A stretch of DNA of 26,988 nucleotides from Planctomycetaceae bacterium. GTDB lineage: Bacteria > Planctomycetota > Planctomycetia > Planctomycetales > Planctomycetaceae. The stretch covers positions 1 to 26,988 of the forward strand of contig DAORWD010000001.1 in assembly GCA_035434085.1 (NCBI GenBank), read 5' to 3'. Below, one piece after another: positions 46-15,440 of this stretch. Each line of letters begins with the position of its first letter. Position 1 is the first letter of the stretch. The position numbers and the translations under genes were made by a program. The notes below the pieces were generated by a model. The model was given only the letters and a program-made list of their open reading frames with translations, did no database searches and was not told the origin of the DNA.

Positions 46-571
46 ACGGTTACGAATTATGATCATCGCAAGCAGTGGATCGACAATCAGCTGGTGCTTC
101 AGGCGAAACACTTCGGGATCGACTTGCTGTGTCAGGCGATCATGTCGAATCACATTCACCTCGTTCTGAGATCGAGGCCGGATGTGGTGAAAGAGTGGGA
201 TCACACTGAGGTAGCTCGGCGGTGGCTGATGCTGTGCCCGGTGCGGCGGGATGAACATCGGCAGCCGGAGGAACCGACAGAATTCGAACTCAACAACATC
301 CGGAACGACAAAGAAAAGCTGGCTGCCATTCGCAGTCGTCTCAGCGATATTTCGTGGTGGATAACGCGGAGCGACGCCGCAACATTTGGCTCCGCTCTTT
401 GATCGTCTGGGCGTGTCGTCGGACATTTGGTGCCATCTTGTGAAGAACTTCGGCAAACTGTTCAGTATCGTGGCGGGCCAGCCAAATCAGATCGATGGAC
501 ATCGCTCAAAAAACGGCTCGCACAAATACCGCGCTCGACGTGCCGTTCGAGAGCTGCTGAGTTCCGTTTAG
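46..571 (+). pseudogene. Decayed HUH (RAYT/IS200-like Y1) transposase, 5'-truncated, with a large internal deletion and frameshift
   Basis: Frame +1 from ~55 reads NYDHRKQWIDNQLVLQAKHFGIDLLCQAIMSNHIHLVLRSRPDVV...RLSDISWW, with the HUH motif H-I-H at 151-159 and in-frame stops upstream at 19 and 43. Frame +2 from 365 reads RGATPQHLAPLFDRLGVSSDIWCHLVKNFGKLFSIVAG...RELLSSV*, which resembles the C-terminus of the same family. The middle segment carrying the catalytic Tyr (YVDLNP-like) is absent. Confidence 0.75.
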
Positions 572-777: not shown

Positions 778-1111
778 GACCCAAGCCCGAATGGCGTGGA
801 CTCAAGCTGAAATCAAGAGTCCAGACCCCATCCAGCTCGTCTGGATCGGTGAAAAAGATGGTGAGCTGGAAAATGCCTGTGCTCGATGCAGCTTGCCCCC
901 ATCCGCTTTACGCGGATGGTGCAGAAGATCGGTTGGCGATGTGTCAGTTCAGCCTCATCTCCTGATCTTGTCCACCGATCCGCACGAGGCGGATGGGGTT
1001 GAAGACGCATTTGTTGTGTTTGTTGCCAGCTCTCCATCTGGGCTCACCAATCCGGGCGAGCCGGATGGGGTCGCATGGAGCGATTTTGTCCACGCCATTC
1101 GACGCGGGGTC
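778..1111. repeat. Composite palindromic REP/REPIN-like cluster: outer inverted repeat plus four hairpin units (two +, two -)
   Basis: Exact 14-bp inverted repeat CGAATGGCGTGGAC at 788-801 and 1088-1101. Inside it are units of the form GACCCC-stem6-loop5-stem6-(Y)GGTG-N4/5-GAT at 824-869(+), 895-932(+), 961-1000(-) and 1026-1072(-). Confidence 0.8.
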
Positions 1112-1408
1112 CGTGGTGCCAGAAAACGCACAAGCAACTCGTCTCCCAGAAATCTTCTCAGGAAAACGCAATCTCAACTGTTTGCAGTGCAATGTGCGGC
1201 ACTTCAACAGCAGCGTCCCGCCGATCTCGCAGGATTTAGACAGGTGCCGTCGCCGATTCGTCTGGCAAAACCATCGTCTCGAGCTGATTCAATTTGGACG
1301 GTGTGTCGATCCTTACTGCGGAACTCGCTCAGTCATCTTGACTCCCAACGCCGTTTCGAAAAATGCTGTTGTACTTTAACGTCACGGAAATCAGTATGCT
1401 GACAGCTC

Positions 1409-1828
1409 TCAGGATGCGATTTCCGGAGTTGCGGCCACAGGGATCAGCTTATCCAGAATTCCGTTGACAAAACTGCTGGAGTGCTCGGTGCCGAATTCGC
1501 GGGCGATTTCAATCGCTTCATCGATCACAACTGCGGCGGGTGTTCCCAGTTTTGTCATTTCGTACAGGCCAAGCCGCAACACGTTGCGATCGGTGGGGGC
1601 CATTCGGTCAAGACGCCAGTTTGTTGCCGTACGGCAGATGACTTCGTCCAGTTCCGCTCTCGCCGCAATGACGCCGGAGAGCAGCGACCAGGCAAATTCC
1701 CGCAGCGGCGGGTCAGTGAATTCCTTGCGGAGTTCGATCTGCACGCGATCCAGATCCGCGTCAGGATTCTGGTCAACCAGATAGAGCATCTGCAGCACAA
1801 AACGACGAGCGTCAGAACGTCCGGCCAT
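1409..1828 (-). CDS. nusB: Transcription antitermination factor NusB
   Basis: RSDARRFVLQMLY...ATNWRLDRMAPTDRNVLRLGLYEM...VIDEAIEIAREFGTEHSSSFVNGILD; lies downstream of ribH. Confidence 0.97.
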   Translation of the reverse strand: MAGRSDARRFVLQMLYLVDQNPDADLDRVQIELRKEFTDPPLREFAWSLLSGVIAARAELDEVICRTATNWRLDRMAPTDRNVLRLGLYEMTKLGTPAAVVIDEAIEIAREFGTEHSSSFVNGILDKLIPVAATPEIAS

Positions 1829-1880
1829 AAGTGAATGAATTCAGGTAAAGAAAAAAAGTAGTAGTTCGTAACTGCCATCG

Positions 1881-1942
1881 TTTAACCCGAGCCAACGGCG
1901 AGGCTGCAAGGCAAAACGGCCTCGCCGCTGGCTCGGGTCAAA
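1881..1942. repeat. Intergenic palindrome (REP-like hairpin)
   Basis: 24-nt arms at 1881-1904 and 1919-1942 are reverse complements with 2 mismatches; 14-nt loop; no U-tract. Confidence 0.7.
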
Positions 1943-1995
1943 CGGCTTACACATGCCAGAATCTGTTCAGCGACACATTGCTTGCGACCATCCGA

Positions 1996-2460
1996 TTAGA
2001 TCAACTTCAACAAACTCACCATTTCGATCGCCGCCAGAGTCGCTTCGTGCCCCTTGTTGCCAACTTTGCCACCGGCCCGATCCAGCGCCTGCTCCATGGA
2101 TTCACAGGTGATGACGCCGAATGTGACAGGGATTCCGGTTTCACGCGTGATGCTCATGATCCCGGCGGCAACCTGGCTGTTGATGTATTCATGATGTGTG
2201 GTTGATCCCTGAATCACGGCTCCCAGACAGATCACAGCGCTGTACTTGTTGGACTTGGCGAGTTTGGACGCGGCGAGCGGAATCTCAAATGAGCCTGGAA
2301 CCCAGGCGATCGTGATTTTATCGGCACTGCCACCGTGTCGCACGATCGTGTCGATCGCTCCTTCAAGCAAGCGCTTCGTGATCAGATCATTGAAGCGCGA
2401 CACGACGATGGCGAATGAGGCATCGGCGGCGTTGAGTTGTCCGTGTAGTTCAGTAGGCAT
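1996..2460 (-). CDS. ribH: 6,7-dimethyl-8-ribityllumazine synthase
   Basis: AIVVSRFNDLIT, WVPGSFEIP, VICLGAVIQGST.H and GNKG motifs. Start reassigned to ATG at 2460 (MPTELHG); the longer ORF runs into repeat DNA. Confidence 0.97.
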   Translation of the reverse strand: MPTELHGQLNAADASFAIVVSRFNDLITKRLLEGAIDTIVRHGGSADKITIAWVPGSFEIPLAASKLAKSNKYSAVICLGAVIQGSTTHHEYINSQVAAGIMSITRETGIPVTFGVITCESMEQALDRAGGKVGNKGHEATLAAIEMVSLLKLI

Positions 2461-2509
2461 GGGAGAGATGGAGAATAGTGAATTGGGAATAGTAAATAGT
2501 TTATGACCT

Positions 2510-2623
2510 CGTTCCAGGGCTCCAGCCCTGGAACGCACCGCCTAGGAGGCTCCTGCCTCCCGGATCGACACAGGAGGCAGGAGCCTCCGGGCAGTTTGCT
2601 CCGAGGCTGGAGCCTCGGAGCAA
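2510..2623. repeat. Triple-hairpin REP/BIME-like element
   Basis: Three perfect stems: 2510-2535 (12 bp, loop CC), 2545-2588 (16 bp, 12-nt loop) and 2596-2623 (13 bp, loop GG). The first and third resemble each other in inverted orientation. Confidence 0.8.
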
Positions 2624-2640
2624 GGAGCAGATTGTGCATC

Positions 2641-4041
<1,401 letters not shown>

Positions 4042-4146
4042 GGCCGCGTCGGGCCTCCAGACAGGATTGAGGGAGAGTTACACCAGCGAAAAGAGACAGG
4101 TAATGTTGATCGATCGGAAACTGGTGCGATCCGGTCGAGCAAGAAT

Positions 4147-4812
4147 TCAAAGCGGATTGTTGGCGGTTTTTTGTTGAATAATCTGAGTCAGGATTTTCCG
4201 CATCTGCTCAGCCGCAGCGGCTGGTGATCCGGAGTTGTCCACAATATGCCCAGCATGTTCGCGTTTACGAGCAACGCTCCACTGAGACGATTCACGTCGC
4301 CGAAGTTCCTCTGGCGACCATCCCCGAGTTGCCCCAACTCGCTGCTGTCGTAACTCGACGGGCGTATCAATAAAAATTATTGAATCACATTCAGCTGCCC
4401 AGCCTGCTTCCAGCAGCAGTGCCGCGTCAAGAATGATGGCATCCACGTCATGCGGAACCTGTTGAATCGTTTGCAGGACTTTTTTGCGTATCTCCGGATG
4501 CAGAATCTCATTGAGCTGAATTCTATTCTTCGTCTGTTCAGTGGAGACACCAAAAATTTTCCGAGCCAGTTGCTCTCGGTCGATTTGTCCGGTGTTGTCG
4601 AGAACCTCGCTTCCAAAGACCCCAACAATTGTTTGAAGAATATCATCCTGTGTTAACAGGTCGTGCCCGATGCGATCCGCATCGATCACGCACAACTGAA
4701 CGCCCCCCCTAACTTCTTGAACGACAGAACTTTTTCCAGCGCCGATACCTCCGACAATGCCGACAATCGGAATGTTCGCAGACCTGGAAGAATCTGAGTG
4801 GACGGATGACAA
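4147..4812 (-). CDS. coaE: Dephospho-CoA kinase
   Basis: VGIVGGIGAGKSSV P-loop, IDADRIGH, IDREQLA, ILHPEIR, LDAALLLEAG, VDNSG. The TTG start is uncertain. Confidence 0.93.
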   Translation of the reverse strand: MSSVHSDSSRSANIPIVGIVGGIGAGKSSVVQEVRGGVQLCVIDADRIGHDLLTQDDILQTIVGVFGSEVLDNTGQIDREQLARKIFGVSTEQTKNRIQLNEILHPEIRKKVLQTIQQVPHDVDAIILDAALLLEAGWAAECDSIIFIDTPVELRQQRVGATRGWSPEELRRRESSQWSVARKREHAGHIVDNSGSPAAAAEQMRKILTQIIQQKTANNPL

Positions 4813-5223
4813 CGGTTGAAATCAATGAGAAGACGTGACTCGCGGATGCGAGAAATACTGGATGGGAATTTTCAGCGGGACGTGTGGCGTTCCTTTGCCC
4901 AGCACAAACCGGTTCGGGAGGTTCCGAATGCTTGTCTCGCGGAGCTTACCGCGCCAACGCATCTCGGCTGATCGGAGCAAAATTCGTCCGGCTTTCTCCT
5001 GTCGGACAAACTTTGCGACGTTATGTTGCTCGATGACATGTGCGTTGTCAAATGCCAGATTGGCGACCGAGATGGTTTTCGCGACTTCTTTTTGCGGGAA
5101 ACCTTGTTCCCAACCAAGGCTTTTGGCCCCTTCAGACTGGCTGAACACCGCCTGCCCTGAGAGCATTCTGCCCCGGAGACGATCTGCAAATGGCTTGTGA
5201 CGATCCATCAGGAACTGAAAACT

Positions 5224-7044
5224 ATGAGTGATGATGTGCTGGCATTGGTTGATCAGGCGGCTAAAAACGGACTACTGACGGCGGATTCCCCAGTGAACCT
5301 ACGTTCATGGCTGACCCGCGAGTGCTTCTCTCAGTATCGCCCACGAATCGTTGAACTCGTCAACGCTGGCGAATGGCAAAAGCTGGACGCCATGTTCTGG
5401 ACGGCCATCCCGTTTGGAACCGGCGGTCGACGCGGTCCAATGGGAGAAATGGGCCCAGCGACGATCAACGATCGAACCATTGCCGAATCCGCTCATGGGA
5501 TGGCGGTCTACCTGCGATCAACGGGCGTCACCTCGGGAGGTTCCGCCGTCATCGCTCATGATACGAGAAACAACTCTCCGCACTTCGCCAGAATCACGGC
5601 CTGCACGCTGGCCGCCCATGGCTTGAAGGTTTACCTCTTCGATGGACATCGTTCGACGCCGGAATTGTCTTATGCAGTGCGGAAACTCAACTGCAACATT
5701 GGCGTTGTAATCTCAGCGTCTCACAATCCGCCCGCAGACAATGGCTTCAAAGCTTATTGGAACAATGGTGCCCAGGTGATTCCGCCTCACGACAAAGGGA
5801 TTGTCAAAGAGGTTGAACGAGCCGACGTCATCCCGACCGTGGATTTTGCGACTGCGGTTGGCGACGGTCGGATTCAGATTATTGGTTCAGACATTGATCA
5901 GGACTACGTGGCTGAGGTTCTGAAACTGTCCGAATCGCCCGGCCGTTCCCTGAGCGCTGTGTTTACTCCACTTCACGGAGTAGGCGAGACCTCCGTGTAT
6001 GCCGTGATCAAGGCTGCGGGCTTCCACAACGTCGCGATCTTTGAACCACATCGCGCGGCGGATGGCAATTTCCCGAACGTACCCAATCATCTGCCGAACC
6101 CCGAAAACACTGAAGTGTTTTCGCCGGTCATCGATTGGATCAAAGCGACAGGACATCCCGCAGAACTAATCCTCGCGTCCGATCCGGACGCCGATCGACT
6201 CGGCGTCATGGTTCGAAATCCGGCGGGAGGTTTCACGCCTCTCAGCGGCAACCAGGTCGGCGCATTGATCACCGATTTCCTGTTTCGAAAACGCAAAGCG
6301 TCCGGACGATTTTCTCCTCAGGACTACGTCGTCGAAACGCTGGTCACGACGCCGCTGACGAAAGCCGTGGCCGAACATCACGGGGCGCGATGCTTCTCTG
6401 AACTGATGGTCGGTTTCAAATACATCGCCCAAACAATGGAAGAACAGGGCACCGATCACTTTGTGTTCGGAACGGAGGAATCGATTGGCTTCCTGGCTGG
6501 TTCGTACTGTCGCGATAAAGATGCCAGTGTCGCGGCCCTGTACATTCTGGAACTCGCCGAAGAACTCAAGGCCGAAGGCAAATCACTGCTCGATCAGCTT
6601 GATCAGTTGCACCGTGATTGTGGTTACCATTGCGAAGGCCAGAAGTCGATTTATTGCGAAGGGCCTACCGGCAAGGCAAAAATCGACGGCCTGATGCAGA
6701 CACTGCGAGATGCTCCACCAGCCCAGTTCGGCCCGGTGCGTTTCGCGGAAGCCCTCGACTACAAAACTGGCCGCGTCATTACAGTCCCGTCGGGCAGCCA
6801 GATCGGCGAAATCACGCAGCCGCGCGGCGACATGCTGATCTACAAGTCCGATGCGTCGCAGCCCGTTCGAATCCAAATCGCTGGCCGTCCGTCGGGCACG
6901 GAGCCGAAAATCAAATTCTATTTCTTCTGTCAGTCAGACATCGTGAACGGCGATCTGAACGCGGCTCGAACTGCCGGTGACAAAGCCATGAAGGACGTGC
7001 AGCAAGCCCTGAACGACTGGGCTCAGCAGCAGTTGAAGGGTTAA
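5224..7044 (+). CDS. Phospho-sugar mutase (phosphoglucomutase/phosphomannomutase family)
   Basis: FGTGGRRG, phosphoserine motif ISASHNP, metal motif DPDADR, FGTEESIG, RPSGTEPKIKFY. Start is 5224 (ATG) or 5197. Confidence 0.95.
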   Translation: MSDDVLALVDQAAKNGLLTADSPVNLRSWLTRECFSQYRPRIVELVNAGEWQKLDAMFWTAIPFGTGGRRGPMGEMGPATINDRTIAESAHGMAVYLRSTGVTSGGSAVIAHDTRNNSPHFARITACTLAAHGLKVYLFDGHRSTPELSYAVRKLNCNIGVVISASHNPPADNGFKAYWNNGAQVIPPHDKGIVKEVERADVIPTVDFATAVGDGRIQIIGSDIDQDYVAEVLKLSESPGRSLSAVFTPLHGVGETSVYAVIKAAGFHNVAIFEPHRAADGNFPNVPNHLPNPENTEVFSPVIDWIKATGHPAELILASDPDADRLGVMVRNPAGGFTPLSGNQVGALITDFLFRKRKASGRFSPQDYVVETLVTTPLTKAVAEHHGARCFSELMVGFKYIAQTMEEQGTDHFVFGTEESIGFLAGSYCRDKDASVAALYILELAEELKAEGKSLLDQLDQLHRDCGYHCEGQKSIYCEGPTGKAKIDGLMQTLRDAPPAQFGPVRFAEALDYKTGRVITVPSGSQIGEITQPRGDMLIYKSDASQPVRIQIAGRPSGTEPKIKFYFFCQSDIVNGDLNAARTAGDKAMKDVQQALNDWAQQQLKG

Positions 7045-7050
7045 CGGCCC

Positions 7051-8358
7051 ATGAAAACACTCATTCGCAACGCGACCGTGGTTCTGCCCGATGCCGTTGA
7101 AAAGCTCAACGTCCTGATTGATGGCGACCGCATTGCATCCATCGGCGCTCCGGATTCTTCGCGAGCTGATGAAGTCGTGGATGCGAACGGACTGCATCTG
7201 ATTCCTGGATTGATCGACGATCAGGTGCATTTTCGTGAACCGGGACTGACGCACAAGGAAGACCTGCACCACGCTACTCGCGCGTGTGCGAAAGGTGGAG
7301 TCACGTCATTCCTTGAAATGCCGAATACAAAGCCAACGACGACGACGCTGCAGGCACTGGACGACAAACTGACGCTTGCCGCCCAACAGTGCCACGTCAA
7401 TTATGGATTCTACATCGGGGCAACTCCGACCAATCTGGATGTCCTGAAAGCGGCCACACGAACGCCGGGTATCAAGATTTTCATCGGTTCCAGTACGGGC
7501 GATTTGCTCGTTGATGAGCAGGCGGCACTTGAGCGGATCTTCGCCGAAACTTCTTTGACGGTTTGTGCTCATTGCGAAGACGAAGCCACCGTCAAAGCAA
7601 ACGCCGCGCGACTCGAAGGAGGTCGGGACGTCTCAGATCACAGCCTTATCCGCGATCACAAAGCCGCGCTGATTGCCACAAAACGCGCCGTGGAACTGGC
7701 GGAGCGGCATCGGCACCGTTTTCATGTGCTGCACGTTTCGACAGCCGATGAAGTCGAATTTCTGCGAAGTACCAGTGATCTGATCACCGCCGAAGCCTGT
7801 CCGCATCATCTGTTTTTTAACATCGATGATTATCCTCGCCTGGGAACACTGGTCCAGATGAATCCGTCCATCAAGACGGCCGCCGACAACGCCGCTGTCT
7901 GGCAAGGTCTGCTGGATGGAACGCTGGAAGTTGTTGCTACGGATCACGCCCCGCATACTCTGGAAGAAAAACGCCAGCCGTATCCGAAATCCCCCAGCGG
8001 ACTGCCCGCCGTCGAAAACTATCTGGCGCTGCTGCTCAACCAGGTCAACCTTGGACGATGTTCGCTGTCCCAGGTCGTGTCCTGGACCGCCGCCGCGCCT
8101 GCCAGGGTCTGGAACATCAGGAACAAGGGGCATATTCGCGAAGGCTATGACGCGGACCTGGTTCTCGTGGATCTCAACAAACGTCAGACGGTTCGAAACG
8201 AAGACCAGCTGACCAAATGTGGCTGGACTCCCTGGCACGGCGAAACGCTCATCGGCTGGCCGGTCCGGACATGGGTCATGGGCCAAACCGTCTTTGCCAA
8301 CGGCAAAGTGATCGATGACATTCGCGGGGAAGAAATCCAGTACCAACGCGAAACGTAG
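7051..8358 (+). CDS. pyrC: Dihydroorotase (amidohydrolase superfamily)
   Basis: [53 protein letters not shown] motifs. Confidence 0.85.
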
Positions 8359-8452
8359 TGCCACAAGCGATGGCGTTGCTGGGAGGGTGTCTCGCAACTC
8401 TGCGACGCATTCCGCTGAGCAAATGTGACAGTTGATTGCTTGAGTTCACCAT

Positions 8453-9145
8453 ATGCAAAACATTGAAGCGTATCCTATCCCCGGCTTCCGGGAGCCATTC
8501 AGTTGCTTCACTCATCTCGCGGCAGCGCCTGTCTTTGCGGTGCTGGGTTATTTTCTTGTGCGCCGCGGGCGAGGAAGTATCAGTCGCACGGTGAGCCTCG
8601 CAATTCTGGTTCTTTCGTCTGTCTTCCTGCTTTCGATGAGCGGCACCTATCATCTGCTGGAACACGGCACCACCCGAGACGTCATGCGGCAGCTTGACGT
8701 GGCAGGCGTGTTTGTGCTGATTGCCGGAACCGTGACACCGGTGCATACAATTCTGTTTCGCGGTTTCGATCGTTGGATGCCTCTGCTGTTGATCTGGTCA
8801 GTGGCGGCGGCGGGGATCCTGTTGAGAACAATGTACCCGGATGGCCTTGCAACTGGATTTGCGACGAGCATCTTCTTGCTGATGGGCTGGGGTGGAATCG
8901 TCTCGTTCGTGCGGTTATGGAGGAGATACGGATTCTCGTTCGTCCGGCCCGTATTGTTGGGCGGCCTGTCTTACACGGCTGGCGTGTTTATCCTCGACCT
9001 GAATTGGCCAACGCCAATCCCCGGCATTATCGGTGCTCACGAGTTGTGGCATGTGGCCGTGCTCGCTGGCCTTGGCCTGCACTGGAAGTTTGTCTTCCAA
9101 TTCGCCGACGGACCGCCTGAGGATCAGCTTACTCAGCTGAGCTGA
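8453..9145 (+). CDS. Hemolysin III / PAQR-family membrane protein
   Basis: EPFSCFTH, SGTYH, LD..GVFVLIAGTVTP and HELWHVAVLAG...HW motifs; multiple hydrophobic segments. Confidence 0.9.
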   Translation: MQNIEAYPIPGFREPFSCFTHLAAAPVFAVLGYFLVRRGRGSISRTVSLAILVLSSVFLLSMSGTYHLLEHGTTRDVMRQLDVAGVFVLIAGTVTPVHTILFRGFDRWMPLLLIWSVAAAGILLRTMYPDGLATGFATSIFLLMGWGGIVSFVRLWRRYGFSFVRPVLLGGLSYTAGVFILDLNWPTPIPGIIGAHELWHVAVLAGLGLHWKFVFQFADGPPEDQLTQLS

Positions 9146-9162
9146 TGCCACCTATTAACAAG

Positions 9163-9702
9163 TCAAAAGGACCGAACAGCGATCTCCAGGGCCGGTTTGA
9201 GCCACGGTGCATATGTCTCCGGCCGTCGCTGCATGTCGGCCATCAATTCGCTGGTCTCGATCCATTTCCAATCTATGATCTCGTCCGGGTTCGGCCGCGG
9301 TTCGATTTCGCTGGTGGCGTGTCCGGTCAAGACCGTGTCGTGTTCATGTTCCACACCGTGATCAGCTTCCTCCGCGATGTACACGAAGCTGCCGACAATC
9401 TTTAATGGCACCCGAAAACCGAACTCTTCGTGCAGACGTTCCGCTGCCACTTCCGCCAAATCCTGTGCCGGACGACGCGGGTGACTGCAACATGTGTTCG
9501 CCCAGCGGGCGGCGAACAGCGGTTTGTCCGCGCTCCGCTGCTGGATCAGCAACTCACGGCCCCGGCTTCTGAAAACGAACACCGAGAACGCCTGATGCAG
9601 CATTCCAGGCGCAGTATGAGCTTCCATCCGATCGGCCATCCCGATGGGCTCGCCGTCCTCGCTACACAGGACGACTTGAACTGGTGCTGCCGCATTCATC
9701 AT
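9163..9702 (-). CDS. idi: Isopentenyl-diphosphate delta-isomerase type 1 (Nudix-like)
   Basis: AH..PGMLHQAFSVFVF, LLIQQRS..K, WANTCCSHP, EHEHD.VL and EIIDWKW motifs. A GAGGAG RBS precedes ATG at 9702. Confidence 0.92.
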   Translation of the reverse strand: MMNAAAPVQVVLCSEDGEPIGMADRMEAHTAPGMLHQAFSVFVFRSRGRELLIQQRSADKPLFAARWANTCCSHPRRPAQDLAEVAAERLHEEFGFRVPLKIVGSFVYIAEEADHGVEHEHDTVLTGHATSEIEPRPNPDEIIDWKWIETSELMADMQRRPETYAPWLKPALEIAVRSF

Positions 9703-9837
9703 TTGCACTCTCCTCATAATCGACGGAACCAAAATGCTCAGATCTTTCATTGTAGTACATGATGCAGTGGATGAGGCCGACGTGGAATCACTGGCTGTCG
9801 AGTTGGTCCAGACAAGCCTGGCGGTGCCACATCGCTA

Positions 9838-9968
9838 CAACCATCTCACGCTCTGCCCCTACCAAAGCGAGGCGGTAGGCCGAAAATCCCGCCGCACCTG
9901 CAACGCCTTTTCGAGCTTTCGGCTGCTGCGAATTCGCGTGAGGTTGCCGGGGCTTTCGCCCATTCCAT
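9838..9968 (-). pseudogene. Highly deleted IS1182-like transposase remnant
   Basis: RBS-like GGGAG precedes ATG 9968 (MEWAKAP). A frame shift at ~9945 leads to LTRIRSSRKLEKALQVRRDFR, resembling the DUF772 'IRSSRxLE...DFRWL' motif. WL follows after 12 extra codons that include a stop. Confidence 0.55.
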
Positions 9969-10080
9969 AACGATCAACTCCCTTTGTGTCGCTCTTGTAG
10001 CAATTCAAGACAACACCTCCAGGCCTGAATCGCAAACGACTTCAACGGCATTCTACTGCCAACAATTTCTAAATCCGCTC

Positions 10081-12654
10081 CTAACTTCCAGGCATTCCTT
10101 TTCGGCGCGGTTCCACCGCCTTACGGATCGAATGCTCGACCTCCTGCCAGCCTTTACGCTGGGGAGAATACTCCAGCACCGGTTTGGCGTTCCAGGTGGC
10201 GGTCTGGAACTTCTTCAATTCCTGCTCCAGCGGGACGTTGGAGTCCCAACCGTCGCGGTCGAGTGGAACGACGATTAGTGTGCAGGATTTATCCTCGGCC
10301 TTCGCACGTTTCACCGCTTCCGGTGCCTCGGTCTGCTGAATGAAACTCGAAGCACAGCTATTGATCGAGTGGAACAAGAGCACGATGTCCGCCCCGGCCA
10401 ATTCCTCCAGGATGCGCTCCTCCCATTCCTCGCCGGCCACCAATTGTTTGTCGTCCCAAGTCTGAATGTAGCCGCGCTCGCCGAGGATGGTCAGGTGCTT
10501 CGACAGCGGCCGAATTTTCTTTTCGTCGTCATGGGCGTAGCTGACAAACAGCCGCATCCGGGGCAATGCAGAGTCCCGATCGGCTTCGCAGGCTTGCGGG
10601 CTTTCGATGCTGTCCAGCGTCTCCGTCACCATCACCGTTGCCTGCTCTCCATCTTTGGTTTCTTCTTCGACTTTCCTGGTCCCTTTCTCTTCGAGCAACC
10701 GCAGCTTTCCCACTCGCACCCAGGAATCCCGGTGCTCTTCCATTTCCACTTCTTCCACCACTCGGACCTTGCCGTGCAAGACAGTCAGATGCGCGCGGAT
10801 CAAGTCAAACAGACTCTGCGGATCATCCGCCGTGTCATCGATGACGGCCACCTCGGTGCGGCGTTCGGTGCGGTTGAGACGGACCAGCGCCCGGCATTCG
10901 GCCCATTCCAGCACCACGCCGCTGCGCCAGCGCCAGTCGGGATGCTCTTCACTCATCTCGTGGGTCCGCACGATGAACCGCGGCAGCAGTCCGGGCGGCA
11001 GTGCGTCGGGATACGAGAATCGCAGCCGCCGCACCTGCGGACCTCGGAACTCCGTGAAGGCTTCCGGCTGTTCTTCGCGCAGCAATTCGGGAATCAGCCA
11101 GCCCGTGCCATCCAGCGGAAACGCCACCTCGAACTTCTCCATCAGTTCGAGCACGAGGCCGTGTTTGTCTTCCGGGTATTCGGCCGGGTCGAGCGCCTGC
11201 GTCATGGACGAAAGCTGCATCACGCCGTGGCAGTCCTGTTTCTGGACGAATCGGATCAGGCCGTAGATCGCTTCCGTGACCCATTTCGGCTTCAACACGC
11301 TGGTCGATCGCAGTCGATGGTGGTCTCGGAAATTGAGCGCGATTCCCAACCGGTGCAGCGTCTGCACCAAGCTGTCTTGCTTGCCAACGTCGTCCACGCC
11401 GGTCTCCTGGCACAACGCCTGGTAGTCCCGGTATTCCAGGAAACTCTGCGGCATCTCGGTCAGCTTTTGCTTCACGCGGTGCCACTTCTTCGACACGCCC
11501 AGCCACACGTCCCGCATGCCGCCCACGGTCTTCGCCAGCAGCTCGCGCAGCGTCTCAATTCCGCGCAGCGTGAAGGCACCCGTCTCGACGAACCCAGCGA
11601 TTTGCGGGCAGCGTTCCTGCAGACGGAAGCGATCGACCGAAAAGGGGTGATCGTCGTACTTCGTCAGAACCACGATCACCGGACTGTCGCCGCCAAAGCT
11701 CTGGATAAACCGCAGCCAGTAGTCGGTCTCCAATTCCCAATTGCTTTCCCGGCCCTGTAACACGAGCAGATAGACGCAGCGTTCGGCGAGAAAAATCTGA
11801 TGTGTGCCGTGCAGAAATTCCTGCCCGCCGAAATCCCACACATGTCCCGTCGCAGTTCCCTGCGCGCAGTTCAGGTCAAGCGGCAGCACGTTGATGCCCG
11901 GCGTCTCAAGTTCCTCTTTGTCCGTGGGCTCTCCGCGCAAGGCCTTCAAGAGCGATGTCTTCCCGACTCGCCCACGTCCGACCAACAGCAGCCGCACTTC
12001 CCGCATCGGCTCCTTACCTTCGGCCTGTCGCGAAAAATAGAAGTCGAGGATCGCCTGCGGATTAGCGGGTGGATTATTTTCGGCTGATTCGCTAAACATT
12101 GGCCCCAACAGTTCGGTGGGCAGTTCCAAGGCTTCGTTGCCGTGCAGTGTCAGTTCTTTGAGTGATCGTAGGTCTTTCAAACTTTCCGGCAGTTTTGTCA
12201 GCGCGTTGTTTTCCAGAATGAGCCGTTCCAACCCGGCCAACCGCCCGATCTCCGGTGGCAACGTGCTGAGTAGATTGCTGCCAAGGTAGAGCGACGTCAA
12301 CGCGGTAAACTTGCCGATCGCCTGCGGCATTGTGCTGAGTCGGTTGCCTTGCAGGACAAGCCACTTTAATGCCGTGAGGTCGCCGATCTCTGCTGGCAGT
12401 GTGCTGAGCTTGTTGCTGCTGACGTCGAGTGACGTCAACGCCGTGAGCTGGCCGATCTCCTGCGGCAGTGTACGGAGTTGGTTGCCTTGCAGAATAAGCC
12501 ACGTCAACCCTTTCAGCTGGCCGAGGTCCAGTGGCAGCGTGCAGAGGCCCAAATGGCTCAGATCGAGATGACGGCCGCCCTCCTCGCGACAGGCGTCGAT
12601 CCGTCGCTGGGCTTCGGCGTAGCCGTCATTGGACTTGCTGCTGGTCTTTGCCAT
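10081..12654 (-). CDS. LRR-Roc-COR-TIR (prokaryotic Roco) protein
   Basis: About 7 23-aa LRRs; Roc P-loop GRGRVGKT, switch II WDFGGQE, TKYD; COR region (LHRLG..L.F, VLKPKWVTEAIY, PPGLLPRFIVR); C-terminal TIR-like domain LFVSYAHDD...WDDKQLVAGEEWEERI...ADIVLL...SFIQQTE (10084-10554). Start reassigned to ATG 12654. Confidence 0.92.
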   Translation of the reverse strand: MAKTSSKSNDGYAEAQRRIDACREEGGRHLDLSHLGLCTLPLDLGQLKGLTWLILQGNQLRTLPQEIGQLTALTSLDVSSNKLSTLPAEIGDLTALKWLVLQGNRLSTMPQAIGKFTALTSLYLGSNLLSTLPPEIGRLAGLERLILENNALTKLPESLKDLRSLKELTLHGNEALELPTELLGPMFSESAENNPPANPQAILDFYFSRQAEGKEPMREVRLLLVGRGRVGKTSLLKALRGEPTDKEELETPGINVLPLDLNCAQGTATGHVWDFGGQEFLHGTHQIFLAERCVYLLVLQGRESNWELETDYWLRFIQSFGGDSPVIVVLTKYDDHPFSVDRFRLQERCPQIAGFVETGAFTLRGIETLRELLAKTVGGMRDVWLGVSKKWHRVKQKLTEMPQSFLEYRDYQALCQETGVDDVGKQDSLVQTLHRLGIALNFRDHHRLRSTSVLKPKWVTEAIYGLIRFVQKQDCHGVMQLSSMTQALDPAEYPEDKHGLVLELMEKFEVAFPLDGTGWLIPELLREEQPEAFTEFRGPQVRRLRFSYPDALPPGLLPRFIVRTHEMSEEHPDWRWRSGVVLEWAECRALVRLNRTERRTEVAVIDDTADDPQSLFDLIRAHLTVLHGKVRVVEEVEMEEHRDSWVRVGKLRLLEEKGTRKVEEETKDGEQATVMVTETLDSIESPQACEADRDSALPRMRLFVSYAHDDEKKIRPLSKHLTILGERGYIQTWDDKQLVAGEEWEERILEELAGADIVLLFHSINSCASSFIQQTEAPEAVKRAKAEDKSCTLIVVPLDRDGWDSNVPLEQELKKFQTATWNAKPVLEYSPQRKGWQEVEHSIRKAVEPRRKGMPGS
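12229..12504 (-). repeat. ~138-bp tandem duplication inside the LRR region
   Basis: GACGTCAACG occurs at 12293 and 12431 (offset 138) and the flanking sequence is closely similar. Protein repeats 2/4 and 3/5 are pairwise alike. Boundaries are approximate. Confidence 0.75.
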
Positions 12655-12959
12655 ATTTTGTTTCCTGCGTTTACCTCGATGGGTTCCGACGACCGCCGGA
12701 CCCACGCCTTGATGCGTTGCAATTCCGAGAGTTTCTCCACGAGTCTCTGGTCAGTGATTCTCGCGGCGGCCGACCTGTTGACTTGAAGCCAGCCCAATTT
12801 GCCCGCCATGATCCCAAGGGTACACCCGAAAGTCCATCACTGCCCCATTCGGCAACGGTGTGACGGATTTTTGTAGCCGAATTCGAAGTAGCTTGGGACC
12901 ATCGTCCCGAGCGAACAAGGAGTTTCGGACGGAACTTTTCGACTGTCCCAATTGCCAAA

Positions 12960-13140
12960 GACCCCATCCGGCTCGCCCGGATCGGTGAATCTGATGGAGT
13001 GCTAAGAACTCGCCCCCATCACCGGTTCCCTTCTTCCAGTCCTGCCGCCGAAGGCGGCAGGACTGGAAGAAGTGGGCTGTGGCCGGGCTCCTTTTCTAGC
13101 TCACCATCATCTTCACCAATGGCACGAGGCCATTGGGGTC
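12960..13140. repeat. Inverted doublet of the GACCCC-hairpin repeat with a central perfect hairpin (REPIN-like)
   Basis: Copy at 12960-13004(+) GACCCC ATCCGG CTCGC CCGGAT CGGTGA and copy at 13096-13140(-) GACCCC AATGGC CTCGT GCCATT GGTGA AGAT GATGGTGAGCTAG. A perfect 20-bp stem with a GAA loop lies between them at 13030-13072. Confidence 0.8.
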
Positions 13141-13142
13141 GA

Positions 13143-13301
13143 AGGAACCAAGCCATCGCGGGCGATCGCCAGATAGATTCGCGGCCCTGTGATCATATTG
13201 GAATTCGTTGCGCCGAATGTCGAGATCATCACACCGACCGCAGCAACTTTGGCCCCCACCGGACCGAACGTCACCTGAAACACGTCGACCGCGACGACGG
13301 A
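13143..13301 (-). pseudogene. Fragment of an APC-family amino acid permease
   Basis: 53 codons read SVVAVDVFQVTFGPVGAKVAAVGVMISTFGATNSNMITGPRIYLAIARDGLVP, matching the APC 'ISTFG..N.....PR...A.ARDG..P' segment. The rest of the gene is missing on both sides. Confidence 0.8.
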
Positions 13302-15440
13302 CTAATGCACGGACGTAAATTCACTGCTGTTGAGATAGGCCCAGAGCATGTCCTCGGTGGCTGTGCGGATGGCCTGATCGGCAGGCAGGGAACGAGTCAG
13401 TGCCCGGTAACGACTGCGGAAAACTTTTTCCTCTCCGGCGGATGGTTCACGATTCAGCGTTGCCATTGCGATACGCTCCAACGTTTGAGCAATTCCCTGA
13501 GGGCCGCTATGGACAGCTTTCGTCACTTCAGCGGCGGTCATGGGAATGGCGGCCTGCAGGTCTTCACCATTCATCATCAGCATCGCCTGAGCAATATTAC
13601 CCTCGAACGCCAGTTGTTCGTCGTTTTCGTCGGTCCCGTAGGCTCGCACAAACTGTTCAACCCATTCTCGACGATGCGTCGAGCCAATCGAGGAATCGAT
13701 CGGCTGGGCAGCGGCGGATCGGATCGCAATTCGAATCGAATCGTAAACCTGCTCTGGTGCCATCTGTCGCGGATACGCTCGAGAAAACAATGGCGTGCCG
13801 CCTTCTTCAGGATCATCCAATGCCAGAGAAGAAGCAGGCTGAACGCTGGACAGCTGAAACGATTGCGAAAGCGTCAGCCAACGCATTAGCCGCCTTACGT
13901 CATAGTCTGAATCAACAAATGACTGCGTGAGGAGACTGACTAGTTCAGGATGGCTGACTGGGTTATGGAAGCCCAGATCGTCGATTGGATTTGAAAATCC
14001 GTAACCAAAGACCTGCGCCCAGGACCGATTGACCATCGCCTTCGCCACCATCTGGTGACTGTCCGCCGCTAAAAGTCGTACAAGTTCCGAACGGCGTGAA
14101 CTTGAATCGTCCGCCGCCATGGCGTGGCCATCAAATTCGGGCAGCACGGCTTTCTCCTGGCCGCGCAGGGTCTCGTAAAACGTCATTCCCGCCGGGGCAG
14201 AATCGGAAAGCACAAGGACATTCTTCTCTCGTCCGTCCACTGTCTTTACCGCCAGTGGTTTTCGTTCGGCCTGTTTGAAAAATGCATTCAGAGACCAAAA
14301 TTCATCCTGGTGGCGATCTTTGGCGAACGGATGATCATGACACTGAGTACACTGCACTTGCTGACCCAGAAACAATCGTGCGGTCACGGCAGTTGCAGGC
14401 GTGGCTTTATCGTTCAAATGAGCAAGCAGAAAATTTGTGGCTCCGTTTTGATCACTCCGGCCTTCGGCGGCAATCAGATCTCCAACAGTTTCCATCCACG
14501 GGCGATTTGCTGAAAACTGCCGCAACAAGAAATCGTACAACGCGCCTTCATCCACTTTTCCAACGTTGCTGCGGCCGATGAGCAGATTGGTCCAGGTGAC
14601 CGAGAGACTTTCGGCGTAGCGAGGATCATCCAGCAGGGAATCAACCAGTTCGGAACGTTTCCTCGGAGACTTCCGGGCGACAAACGTGGACACTTCTATG
14701 ACGGTCGGAATCCGACCGCTCAGCGTCAGGTAGCAGCGGCGAACCCATTCGTAGTCGTCCGCCTGTTGTGCGGGGACGACATCGTTGTCGGCCCAGGCAG
14801 CGGCCACGAGTCGATCTATTTCAGCAATGACTGCCGCATCATCCAGCGCCACCGCTGGTGCGTCATCGGACGGAACACGCATTTCGCCAGGCGGCAAGGG
14901 TACGCCAGCGTCGTTTCGAGAAGTCGATGCAATGGAATCTGGCAACATGCCGTTTAATGGGAGTGGTGCCAGATGATTTGGCTCATCTGGAGGCACGACA
15001 TTCGGATTGGCAGCTGCGTTTTCACCTGGTACCCGATGTTCGATAGCTGAATTTGTTTTTGTGATGGACTGTAGATGAGTGCCAGCCACATTGATTGGTG
15101 CCGCTGGGTGCCAAAGAATAGACCCCAGTCCCGCAAGCAGCAGACATGCGGCGACCGCTGTCGCCATTCGAACGCTGAATCTCGACCAGGGCGATGCTAC
15201 GGGAGAAAGCTTGTACTGTAACGCTGTTGCTTCGGTCAGGACTGAAGTTAGATTTGAACCGGCCAGAACGCCGGCATCCCAGGCAAGTTGTCCGTGCAAC
15301 TGTGTGAACTCAACAAACATTAACTGAAGCGAACGGTCAGTCCGCAGCAATGACTGCAGTTCGAGCAAGTTCTCATCGGACAACTGCTGCTCGCACCACA
15401 GATTGCATAACGTCAGAAAATGTTCCTGCGGGTTGTTCAC
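13302..15440 (-). CDS. Putative anti-sigma factor fused to DUF1549/DUF1553 domains
   Basis: The GTG start at 15440 overlaps the sigma stop (GTGA) and has a GGAGGT RBS. Architecture: N-terminal helical domain (QLSDENLLELQSLL...FVEFTQLHGQL), TM helix (~15111-15167), Pro/Ala linker, DUF1549 (EWVRRCYLTLSGRIPT, CTQCHDHPF), DUF1553 (MVNRSWAQVFGYG, HPELVSLL, LWAYLNSSEF). Confidence 0.85.
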   Translation of the reverse strand: MNNPQEHFLTLCNLWCEQQLSDENLLELQSLLRTDRSLQLMFVEFTQLHGQLAWDAGVLAGSNLTSVLTEATALQYKLSPVASPWSRFSVRMATAVAACLLLAGLGSILWHPAAPINVAGTHLQSITKTNSAIEHRVPGENAAANPNVVPPDEPNHLAPLPLNGMLPDSIASTSRNDAGVPLPPGEMRVPSDDAPAVALDDAAVIAEIDRLVAAAWADNDVVPAQQADDYEWVRRCYLTLSGRIPTVIEVSTFVARKSPRKRSELVDSLLDDPRYAESLSVTWTNLLIGRSNVGKVDEGALYDFLLRQFSANRPWMETVGDLIAAEGRSDQNGATNFLLAHLNDKATPATAVTARLFLGQQVQCTQCHDHPFAKDRHQDEFWSLNAFFKQAERKPLAVKTVDGREKNVLVLSDSAPAGMTFYETLRGQEKAVLPEFDGHAMAADDSSSRRSELVRLLAADSHQMVAKAMVNRSWAQVFGYGFSNPIDDLGFHNPVSHPELVSLLTQSFVDSDYDVRRLMRWLTLSQSFQLSSVQPASSLALDDPEEGGTPLFSRAYPRQMAPEQVYDSIRIAIRSAAAQPIDSSIGSTHRREWVEQFVRAYGTDENDEQLAFEGNIAQAMLMMNGEDLQAAIPMTAAEVTKAVHSGPQGIAQTLERIAMATLNREPSAGEEKVFRSRYRALTRSLPADQAIRTATEDMLWAYLNSSEFTSVH

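Follow-up and report, generated by a model that had tools for sequence, protein, structure and literature searches.

The 26,988-nucleotide stretch of Planctomycetaceae bacterium DNA analyzed here (contig DAORWD010000001.1; hereafter the window) contains six copies of a short hairpin unit, designated R1, at two loci. R1 is a REP-like DNA hairpin family that is structure-selected and carries fixed flanks. We consider these units to be probably the hairpins of a planctomycete system of the REPtron type, the term used for repetitive extragenic palindromes (REPs), together with bacterial interspersed mosaic elements (BIMEs) and REP doublets forming hairpins (REPINs), that are paired with a REP-associated tyrosine transposase (RAYT, or TnpA-REP) (Nunvar 2010; Bertels and Rainey 2011, PMC3116915; Ton-Hoang 2012, PMC3333891; Messing 2012, PMC3479197). 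The autonomous locus of this system would be a low-copy gene for a candidate partner transposase, designated Y1R, that lies between inverted arrays of R1 in relatives of the window's genome. Every genome compared is a metagenome-assembled genome (MAG): the window's own genome (G000; 7.5 Mb in 1539 contigs, the smallest of 1504 bp, with typical planctomycete genes) and, as sampled relatives, 60 genomes, 36 of the same genus and 24 of other genera of the class, to which further MAGs were added as noted below.

Sequence, pairing and distribution of R1

All six units were present at the places and on the strands given in a preliminary description of this DNA. Four belong to composite A, an element described further below. 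Its outer units, unit 1 (824-869, + strand; stem ATCCAG/CTGGAT, loop CTCGT; 64.4 bits) and unit 4 (1026-1072, - strand; stem ATCCGG/CCGGAT, loop CTCGC; 57.5 bits), carry a tail, GATGGTGAGCT in unit 1, and they enclose two tailless inner units, unit 2 (895-939, + strand; stem ATCCGC/GCGGAT, loop TTTAC; 46.7 bits) and unit 3 (955-1000, - strand; stem ATCCGC/GCGGAT, loop CTCGT; 58.8 bits). Composite B holds unit 5 on its left (12960-13005, + strand; stem ATCCGG/CCGGAT, loop CTCGC; 61.1 bits) and unit 6 on its right (13096-13140, - strand; stem AATGGC/GCCATT, loop CTCGT; 61.4 bits), both with the tail. The units at 895 and 1000 were indeed the more degenerate ones, as had been remarked, with divergent 5' letters and no GATGGNGAGCT tail. 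A strict pattern, GACCCC-N17-19-GGTG-N4-6-GAT, matched the window four times vs 0.03 expected.

Covariation was counted on an alignment of 26 units, the six of the window and 20 from elsewhere in G000. The stem cells were Watson-Crick paired without exception (150 of 150), no G-T or G-U wobble pair occurred among them, and each of the six stem pairs covaried, having changed on both sides. When the 3' partner was shifted by up to 3 columns, pairing fell to 13-43%. Alongside the changing stems, the CCCC 5' of the stem, a T at the second loop position, the GGTG 3' of the stem, and a GAT about 5 nt further on were invariant. The early observation that the stems stay perfectly paired despite sequence change, and the argument for selection on structure plus fixed flanks that went with it, are therefore upheld. 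As read off the sequence, pairing of the stem-adjacent CC with the GG of GGTG can extend the helix beyond 6 bp. The foot of the unit consists of (n)nGA followed by the invariant CCCC, and the GT[AG]G foot is absent from the base of the R1 stem, in agreement with the first account. Because the stem variants are mostly position-specific inside two composites that are copied whole, the six window copies do not represent six independent events.

A covariance model of R1 recovered further copies, which had been an expectation of the preliminary description: 95 units in G000, and units in 12 of the 36 sampled same-genus genomes (1 to 57 copies) vs none of the 24 outside the genus. An exact-pattern scan of a species collection placed R1 in many more planctomycete MAGs, several of them with contigs up to 6 Mb, and 113 units were found in G061. 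The units were intergenic at both window loci and at the other loci inspected, and in contigs built from public reads the R1 region was 20-100 times deeper than its flanks, though these contigs gave no trustworthy ends, strand, or excision joints. Scans against Rfam, by gathering thresholds and by E-value, gave no family match, only weak chance microRNA-like matches to a 20-bp hairpin at the center of composite B. A full-text literature search found no published description of the R1 repeat or of a tandem-domain Y1 transposase.

The intergenic placement would also suit an explanation in which R1 acts mainly as RNA or as a host regulatory site (a terminator or stabilizer hairpin, or a protein-binding RNA) maintained by host selection, and REPs elsewhere are known to have such secondary roles (PMC3333891). 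One metatranscriptome run yielded contigs spanning 788-976 and 1069-1349, but these carry no strand or end information and cannot show transcription. The lack of wobble pairs and the use of both orientations fit a DNA-level substrate, and no T-run follows the hairpins. Besides having no Rfam match, the units occur in some close relatives and not in others, and one relative lacks the composites at the corresponding sites. We regard a primary RNA or host-site function as very improbable.

Y1R and its association with R1 arrays

R1 proper was seen linked to Y1R in four MAGs for which the relation to the window's genus is not stated; at least three of these are assemblies with contigs of 0.7-6 Mb. 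In G065 (L246), six forward units at 735-1124 form a direct tandem array with a 69-nt period that runs into the ATG of an intact Y1R gene of ~272 codons (~1123-1938), which is followed by six reverse units at 1965-2344. The G061 locus (L213) consists of three forward units, a 277-codon Y1R frame with one in-frame TAA, and three reverse units, the last of which directly adjoins the stop codon. The largest contig of this genome is 6 Mb, and one weak Y1_Tnp match in it falls exactly between the R1 sets. A second locus of G065, three loci of G064, and one of G062 are flanked likewise. Besides L246 and L213, the loci with R1-flanked Y1R include L251, L248/L255, L256, and L247, and inverted flanks were found at L246, L251, L213, L255, L256, and L248. 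At L248 and L255 (G064:C7:165461-171708), the R1-flanked gene seems to be split by an insert of ~6 kb between its N- and C-terminal parts. The units beside Y1R begin CAGA-CCCC. R1 had been described as always arranged in inverted sets, which holds in the window but not beside Y1R, where direct tandem arrays reach six units.

Using the G061 protein as query, we obtained Y1R homologues from 18 of the 36 genus genomes and from none of the 24 outside the genus, with 1-3 matches per genome. Other Y1R clades are accompanied by sister types of CCCC-hairpin in the (+)gene(-) layout (G001, G013, G002, G028, G012, and G034), the exceptions being one-sided sets at G027 and G010 and mixed orientation near Y1R at G014, G019, and G033. 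These sister hairpins have a CCC(C) foot, a 6-7-bp stem, and loops of CTYGY-, TTCAY-, or CCYGY-type, each Y1R clade having its own type, and several of the families are also abundant in G000. The same extracytoplasmic function (ECF) sigma gene lies downstream of Y1R in G013 and G027. When genus genomes were scored for both features, all 13 with R1 had Y1R, six had Y1R only, and 18 had neither.

Y1R is a protein of ~265 aa with two Y1-like domains. It scored 50.8 bits against Pfam Y1_Tnp (cut-off 23), and it stayed below the NCBIfam cut-offs for RAYT (NF047646; 18.3 vs 80) and for the IS200 model (44.2 vs 55). Across an alignment of fourteen intact homologues, the invariant residues were Y120xxxQ124 in the N-terminal half and H211xH213 and Y257 in the C-terminal half; intact examples include L216:1126-1926 (G027) and the L246 gene of G065. 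The AlphaFold model (pLDDT 90.9, pTM 0.89) displayed the beta-alpha-beta-beta-alpha-beta pattern twice. Its C-domain (152-266) aligned with the TnpA proteins of ISDra2, IS608, and IS200 (Z 9.8, rmsd 2.0-2.2; for ISDra2 and IS608, rmsd 2.0 over 113-115 residues). The N-domain alone matched the Pfam profile over its final two thirds, as far as the Tyr motif (15.7-31.1 bits), and has no HUH motif. Either Y120 or Y257 could be the catalytic residue. IS200/IS605 transposases assemble their active sites across a dimer, and a natural tandem Y1 fusion retaining a single Tyr motif and a single HUH would put this dimer-spanning principle directly to the test. A tentative joint reading, which we think rather doubtful as a whole, is that Y1R is a single-chain pseudo-dimer with a composite active site drawn from Y120xxxQ124 of the N-domain and H211xH213 of the C-domain, and serves as a domesticated hairpin-specific single-stranded DNA nuclease/ligase, while CCCC-footed REPs have split into coexisting lineages within one genus and double as landing sites and cargo of an IS4-family transposon.

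In the mechanism that we propose, forward R1 arrays upstream and reverse arrays downstream of Y1R would make up the autonomous locus. Y1R would recognize the R1 hairpin along with its fixed letters, which are unpaired or only weakly paired (the nnGA-CCCC foot, the CTYGY loop, and GGTG...GAT) on single-stranded DNA, which it would then cut and rejoin. Gene-less inverted sets of two or four units, similar to REPINs and BIMEs, would be the dispersed non-autonomous form, and the composites of G000 ride in shells of the DDE-transposon type, one with the ends of an IS4-type element and 11-bp duplications (A) and one with TA-flanked terminal inverted repeats (TIRs) (B). The model of recognition and cleavage is taken from IS608/ISDra2 and TnpA-REP (PMC3333891, PMC3479197), and by this analogy we infer single-stranded DNA recognition and cleavage by Y1R and which enzyme moved which copy. 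Recognition of a hairpin plus its flanks would explain why the stem changes are strictly Watson-Crick while the flanks remain fixed.

The preliminary description had tentatively attributed R1 to a RAYT-like family present in the window itself, making the units the REPs of an HUH gene of the ~376-aa type (motif MSNHIHLVL) whose relic lies at 61-402 (+ strand), with stops upstream and a frame broken after ~402. Composite A lies ~390 bp from this relic, the relic's intact homologues match the RAYT and Y1_Tnp models below threshold, and every genus genome with at least six units carries a close subfamily member. However, the orthologous relic of G011 stands without repeats, and at the 11 nearest homologous loci there is no R1 within 1.5 kb and no CCCC-hairpin of any kind. 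The family occurs in all 36 genus genomes, many more than the 12 with R1, and G061, with its 113 units, has no homologue at all. The co-occurrence of R1 with the family is weak (9/4/9/15, p = 0.09). This lack of linkage, at other loci and in G061, indicates that the adjacency of relic and composite A in the window is coincidental; we hold the attribution to be largely refuted and scarcely credible. What stands of the original idea is a REP class tied to a Y1/HUH enzyme, given the REPtron-like layout around Y1R; the enzyme had been named wrongly.

Other candidates were examined and set aside. The CACCGAC-N5-GTCGGTG hairpin that surrounds composite A was not found at the loci of the relic's family and does not qualify as its repeat. 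None of the contigs with the ten Y1_Tnp loci of G000 has an R1 unit, and for the RAYT-like proteins at C1428 and C1129 of the same genome the orthologues lie at contig ends with no flanking unit. At L097 and L105, the genes between unit sets are of ordinary kinds (CsgG-like and porin), and the gap between units at G033:C755 is a non-coding insert.

Composite elements and transposon shells

Composite A (789-1100) is a 312-bp miniature inverted-repeat transposable element (MITE) with four R1 units (+,+,-,-) between 18-bp TIRs at 789-806 and 1083-1100 (consensus CAATGGCGTGGACTTAAG). These ends are identical over 18 bp to the TIRs of an IS4-family insertion sequence (IS) of 1.6 kb in the relatives G025 and G017 (L053 = G025:C3:182110-184310, at ~300-1900; also G000:C415:2-663), which encodes a 485-aa transposase that scored 187 bits against NF033592 (cut-off 115). 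In relatives, the IS is bounded by 11-bp duplications, and the duplicated 11-mers are almost always GGC-N5-GCC and centered on REP-like hairpin loops, including those of the R1 unit-6 type. The window copy of composite A has no clean target duplication; the copy at C316 has a perfect one of 11 bp, as do three sister MITEs. Composite A thus shares both TIRs and duplication length with an autonomous IS4-family element, as a MITE should. Besides composite A, the same ends delimit at least six other short elements in G000; the TIR occurs there in 80 copies and bounds at least seven different MITE families. Among the copies of composite A, the R1 cores and TIRs are 90-100% conserved and the spacers have drifted to 50-80%.

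Composite B (12938-13143) is a gene-less fold-back element of ~205 bp with two R1 units (+,-) and, at its center, a perfect 20-bp hairpin (13030-13072). Its left end, (TTC)GACTGTCCCAA lies at 12938-12951, and the right end is degenerate in the window copy; the end sequence (TTC)GACTGTCCCA is common to a TA-flanked MITE family of ~125 bp. Copies of composite B have TA at variable distance, and a target duplication is only suggestive in them, being clear just in the 125-bp sister MITE. As a possible parent of composite B we considered the DDE_3 (IS630-like) genes of G000, none of which has a matching end. Both composites form long fold-back hairpins (DNA fold z of -7.8 for A and -7.9 for B), and composite B and the minimal doublets have the layout of a REPIN, i.e., two inverted units in one long hairpin that is copied as a unit.

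The composites were placed in time by comparison with G011. Composite A is nested in a lineage-specific inserted block (653-1190) that otherwise consists of the CACCGAC-N5-GTCGGTG hairpin element (~718-783 and ~1100-1195), and the orthologous G011 locus keeps the HUH relic and nusB with ~20 bp in place of the block. No copy of composite B was found at the corresponding G011 site. These sequence comparisons indicate that both window loci are later insertions that postdate the split from G011. When 20 G011 elements were checked against G000 for empty sites, one case (L096/C494) resembled internal loss with the left end kept, which does not tell mechanisms apart.

A second four-unit composite (+,+,-,-) exists in G000 (C768:150-620, C1161:190-650, C983, and C703). 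It is built of sister CCCC-hairpins with TGCCAG, TTGG, and TGCCGG stems and CTTGC or CTTGT loops, and it has the outer inverted repeat GGTGCGCGACAAATAGCA. The Y1R relic of G000, at C1068, has units of this kind on both sides.

Several observations count against Y1R as the partner of R1. Because related genomes are not independent samples, the p-value for the co-occurrence of R1 and Y1R is too strong, and the IS4 TIR yields the identical 13/0/6/18 table. The fragmented G000 assembly contains no intact or R1-flanked Y1R that we could find, only a relic (C1068:186-407) between sister-type units, and the R1-rich short-read MAGs G011 and G018 also show no R1-flanked Y1R. The G061 gene has an in-frame stop, and the composites that multiplied in G000 carry DDE-type ends. 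Y1R may thus play no part in the window copies. The missing R1-flanked Y1R of short-read MAGs may be an assembly artefact: a gene of ~0.85 kb between tandem repeats falls below the smallest contig of 1504 bp and would drop out of such an assembly.

The main rival explanation builds on the same ends. In this account, R1 units are passengers of DDE-transposon MITEs (the IS4 shell of A and the TA shell of B) and depend on those transposases alone for their copying; the hairpin is kept for another reason, such as MITE fold-back pairing or harmless insertion, and its proximity to Y1R is secondary, e.g., a pile-up of elements. The IS4-type TIR with its 11-bp duplication, the end that composite B shares with a TA-flanked MITE family, the residence of most G000 units in composite A or B, and a TIR distribution that tracks R1 as well as Y1R does all agree with it. 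In contrast, the IS4-family IS itself has no R1 unit beside its TIR, and the same hairpin design recurs in at least three unrelated shells as well as without an A-type end (C593) and in shell-less doublets (G011). Moreover, several genomes have ordered (+)n gene (-)n arrays that reach directly up to the start and stop codons of Y1R, and the unit type shifts with the Y1R clade. We judge the passenger account unlikely and favor a REPtron-type system with Y1R at its autonomous locus, within which much of the present R1 copy number probably stems from hitch-hiking in transposon shells.

Relation to known systems and other features of the window

The sequence comparisons suggest that R1 and Y1R work like REP and RAYT with neither the GT[AG]G foot nor a class-2 enzyme. 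R1 units share with REPs a short GC-rich hairpin, a fixed unpaired foot, high copy number, and intergenic placement, and their inverted doublets and clusters fold back. In relatives, a low-copy Y1 gene, Y1R, lies between inverted sets of its own repeats, and the repeat type changes along with the enzyme lineage. The R1/Y1R pair departs from REP/RAYT in its nnGA-CCCC foot and conserved CTYGY loop, in an enzyme with two Y1-like domains that falls outside class-2 TnpA-REP, in direct tandem arrays of up to six units beside the gene, and in the many dispersed copies inside DDE-type TIRs.

The nearest description concerns the class 3 TnpA-Y1 proteins (Quentin et al. 2018, PMC6006769), which occur mainly in Planctomycetes and Acidobacteria, are little studied, and are REPtron-like, with atypical hairpins that have a CnGA foot. 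The CAGA-CCCC start of gene-proximal R1 fits CnGA. In this comparison, made by description only, the proteins differ: class 3 members have ~178 aa and the motifs NHVH ... YV[VI][AENY]EQ, with HUH before Y (PMC6006769), whereas the Y-x-x-x-Q of the ~265-aa Y1R is in its HUH-less N-domain, upstream of the HUH domain. The CGTC-tagged REPs (Di Nocera et al. 2013, PMC3733652) are likewise tagged hairpins that lack GTAG; most are head-to-head dimers, often with no adjacent transposase gene, and they have a stem of 8-9 bp starting with A/T and a CCA tail. R1 does not fit them in tag, stem length, or tail, and an R1-flanked Y1 gene exists.

The Y1_Tnp fold of Y1R and the hairpins beside its gene recall IS200/IS605 elements and their palindrome-associated (PATE) and MITE derivatives. 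IS200/IS605 elements are multi-copy and have left- and right-end hairpins on the same strand, whereas the two R1 sides are mutually inverted and arrayed, and Y1R remains at 1-3 copies per genome. Tobes and Pareja (2006) reportedly described IS elements that target REPs, IS1397 among them. The IS4-family element resembles these in duplicating GGC-N5-GCC on hairpin loops; it differs in belonging to another IS family and in having also spawned MITEs that carry hairpins inside.

To our knowledge, REP/RAYT systems are largely confined to Proteobacteria and a small number of other phyla and nearly always have a GTAG foot. R1/Y1R would add a structure-selected, non-GTAG code of hairpin plus foot with a conserved loop in Planctomycetota, comparable to those of TnpA-REP and IS608. 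It would also represent two layered transposition systems, with REP-type hairpins being both target and cargo of an IS4-family element. Short-read assembly may drop a gene that sits between tandem repeats, so it is unsafe to conclude from a MAG that an "orphan" REP family has no transposase.

Other repeats and genes of the window were recorded alongside R1. Two strong hairpins of the GTTCCAGGGCTCCAGCCCTGGAAC type occupy 2507-2625, between the lumazine synthase gene and rho, and resemble an abundant G000 repeat of ~164 bp (e.g., C59:4513-4697; more than 40 copies, 84-95% identity). A 26-bp inverted repeat, 92% complementary, separates nusB from the lumazine synthase gene (1879-1944). A similar repeat occurs at the same place in G011 (L042:2168-2230), and this kept position may point to a conserved hairpin with a regulatory or terminator role and not to a mobile repeat. 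At the DUF1549/DUF1553 gene, G011 (C463:3238-4134; L071/L076) has ~900 bp extra at the 3' end, probably another insertion, which the window lacks at 13295-13300. The gene at 10081-12705 (- strand) encodes an 874-aa protein with leucine-rich repeats (LRR), Roc, COR-A/COR-B, and a C-terminal Toll/interleukin-1 receptor (TIR) domain; a query with window positions 12200-13900 gave no match to it in G028, G029, or G009 and a partial match of 73% identity in G011.

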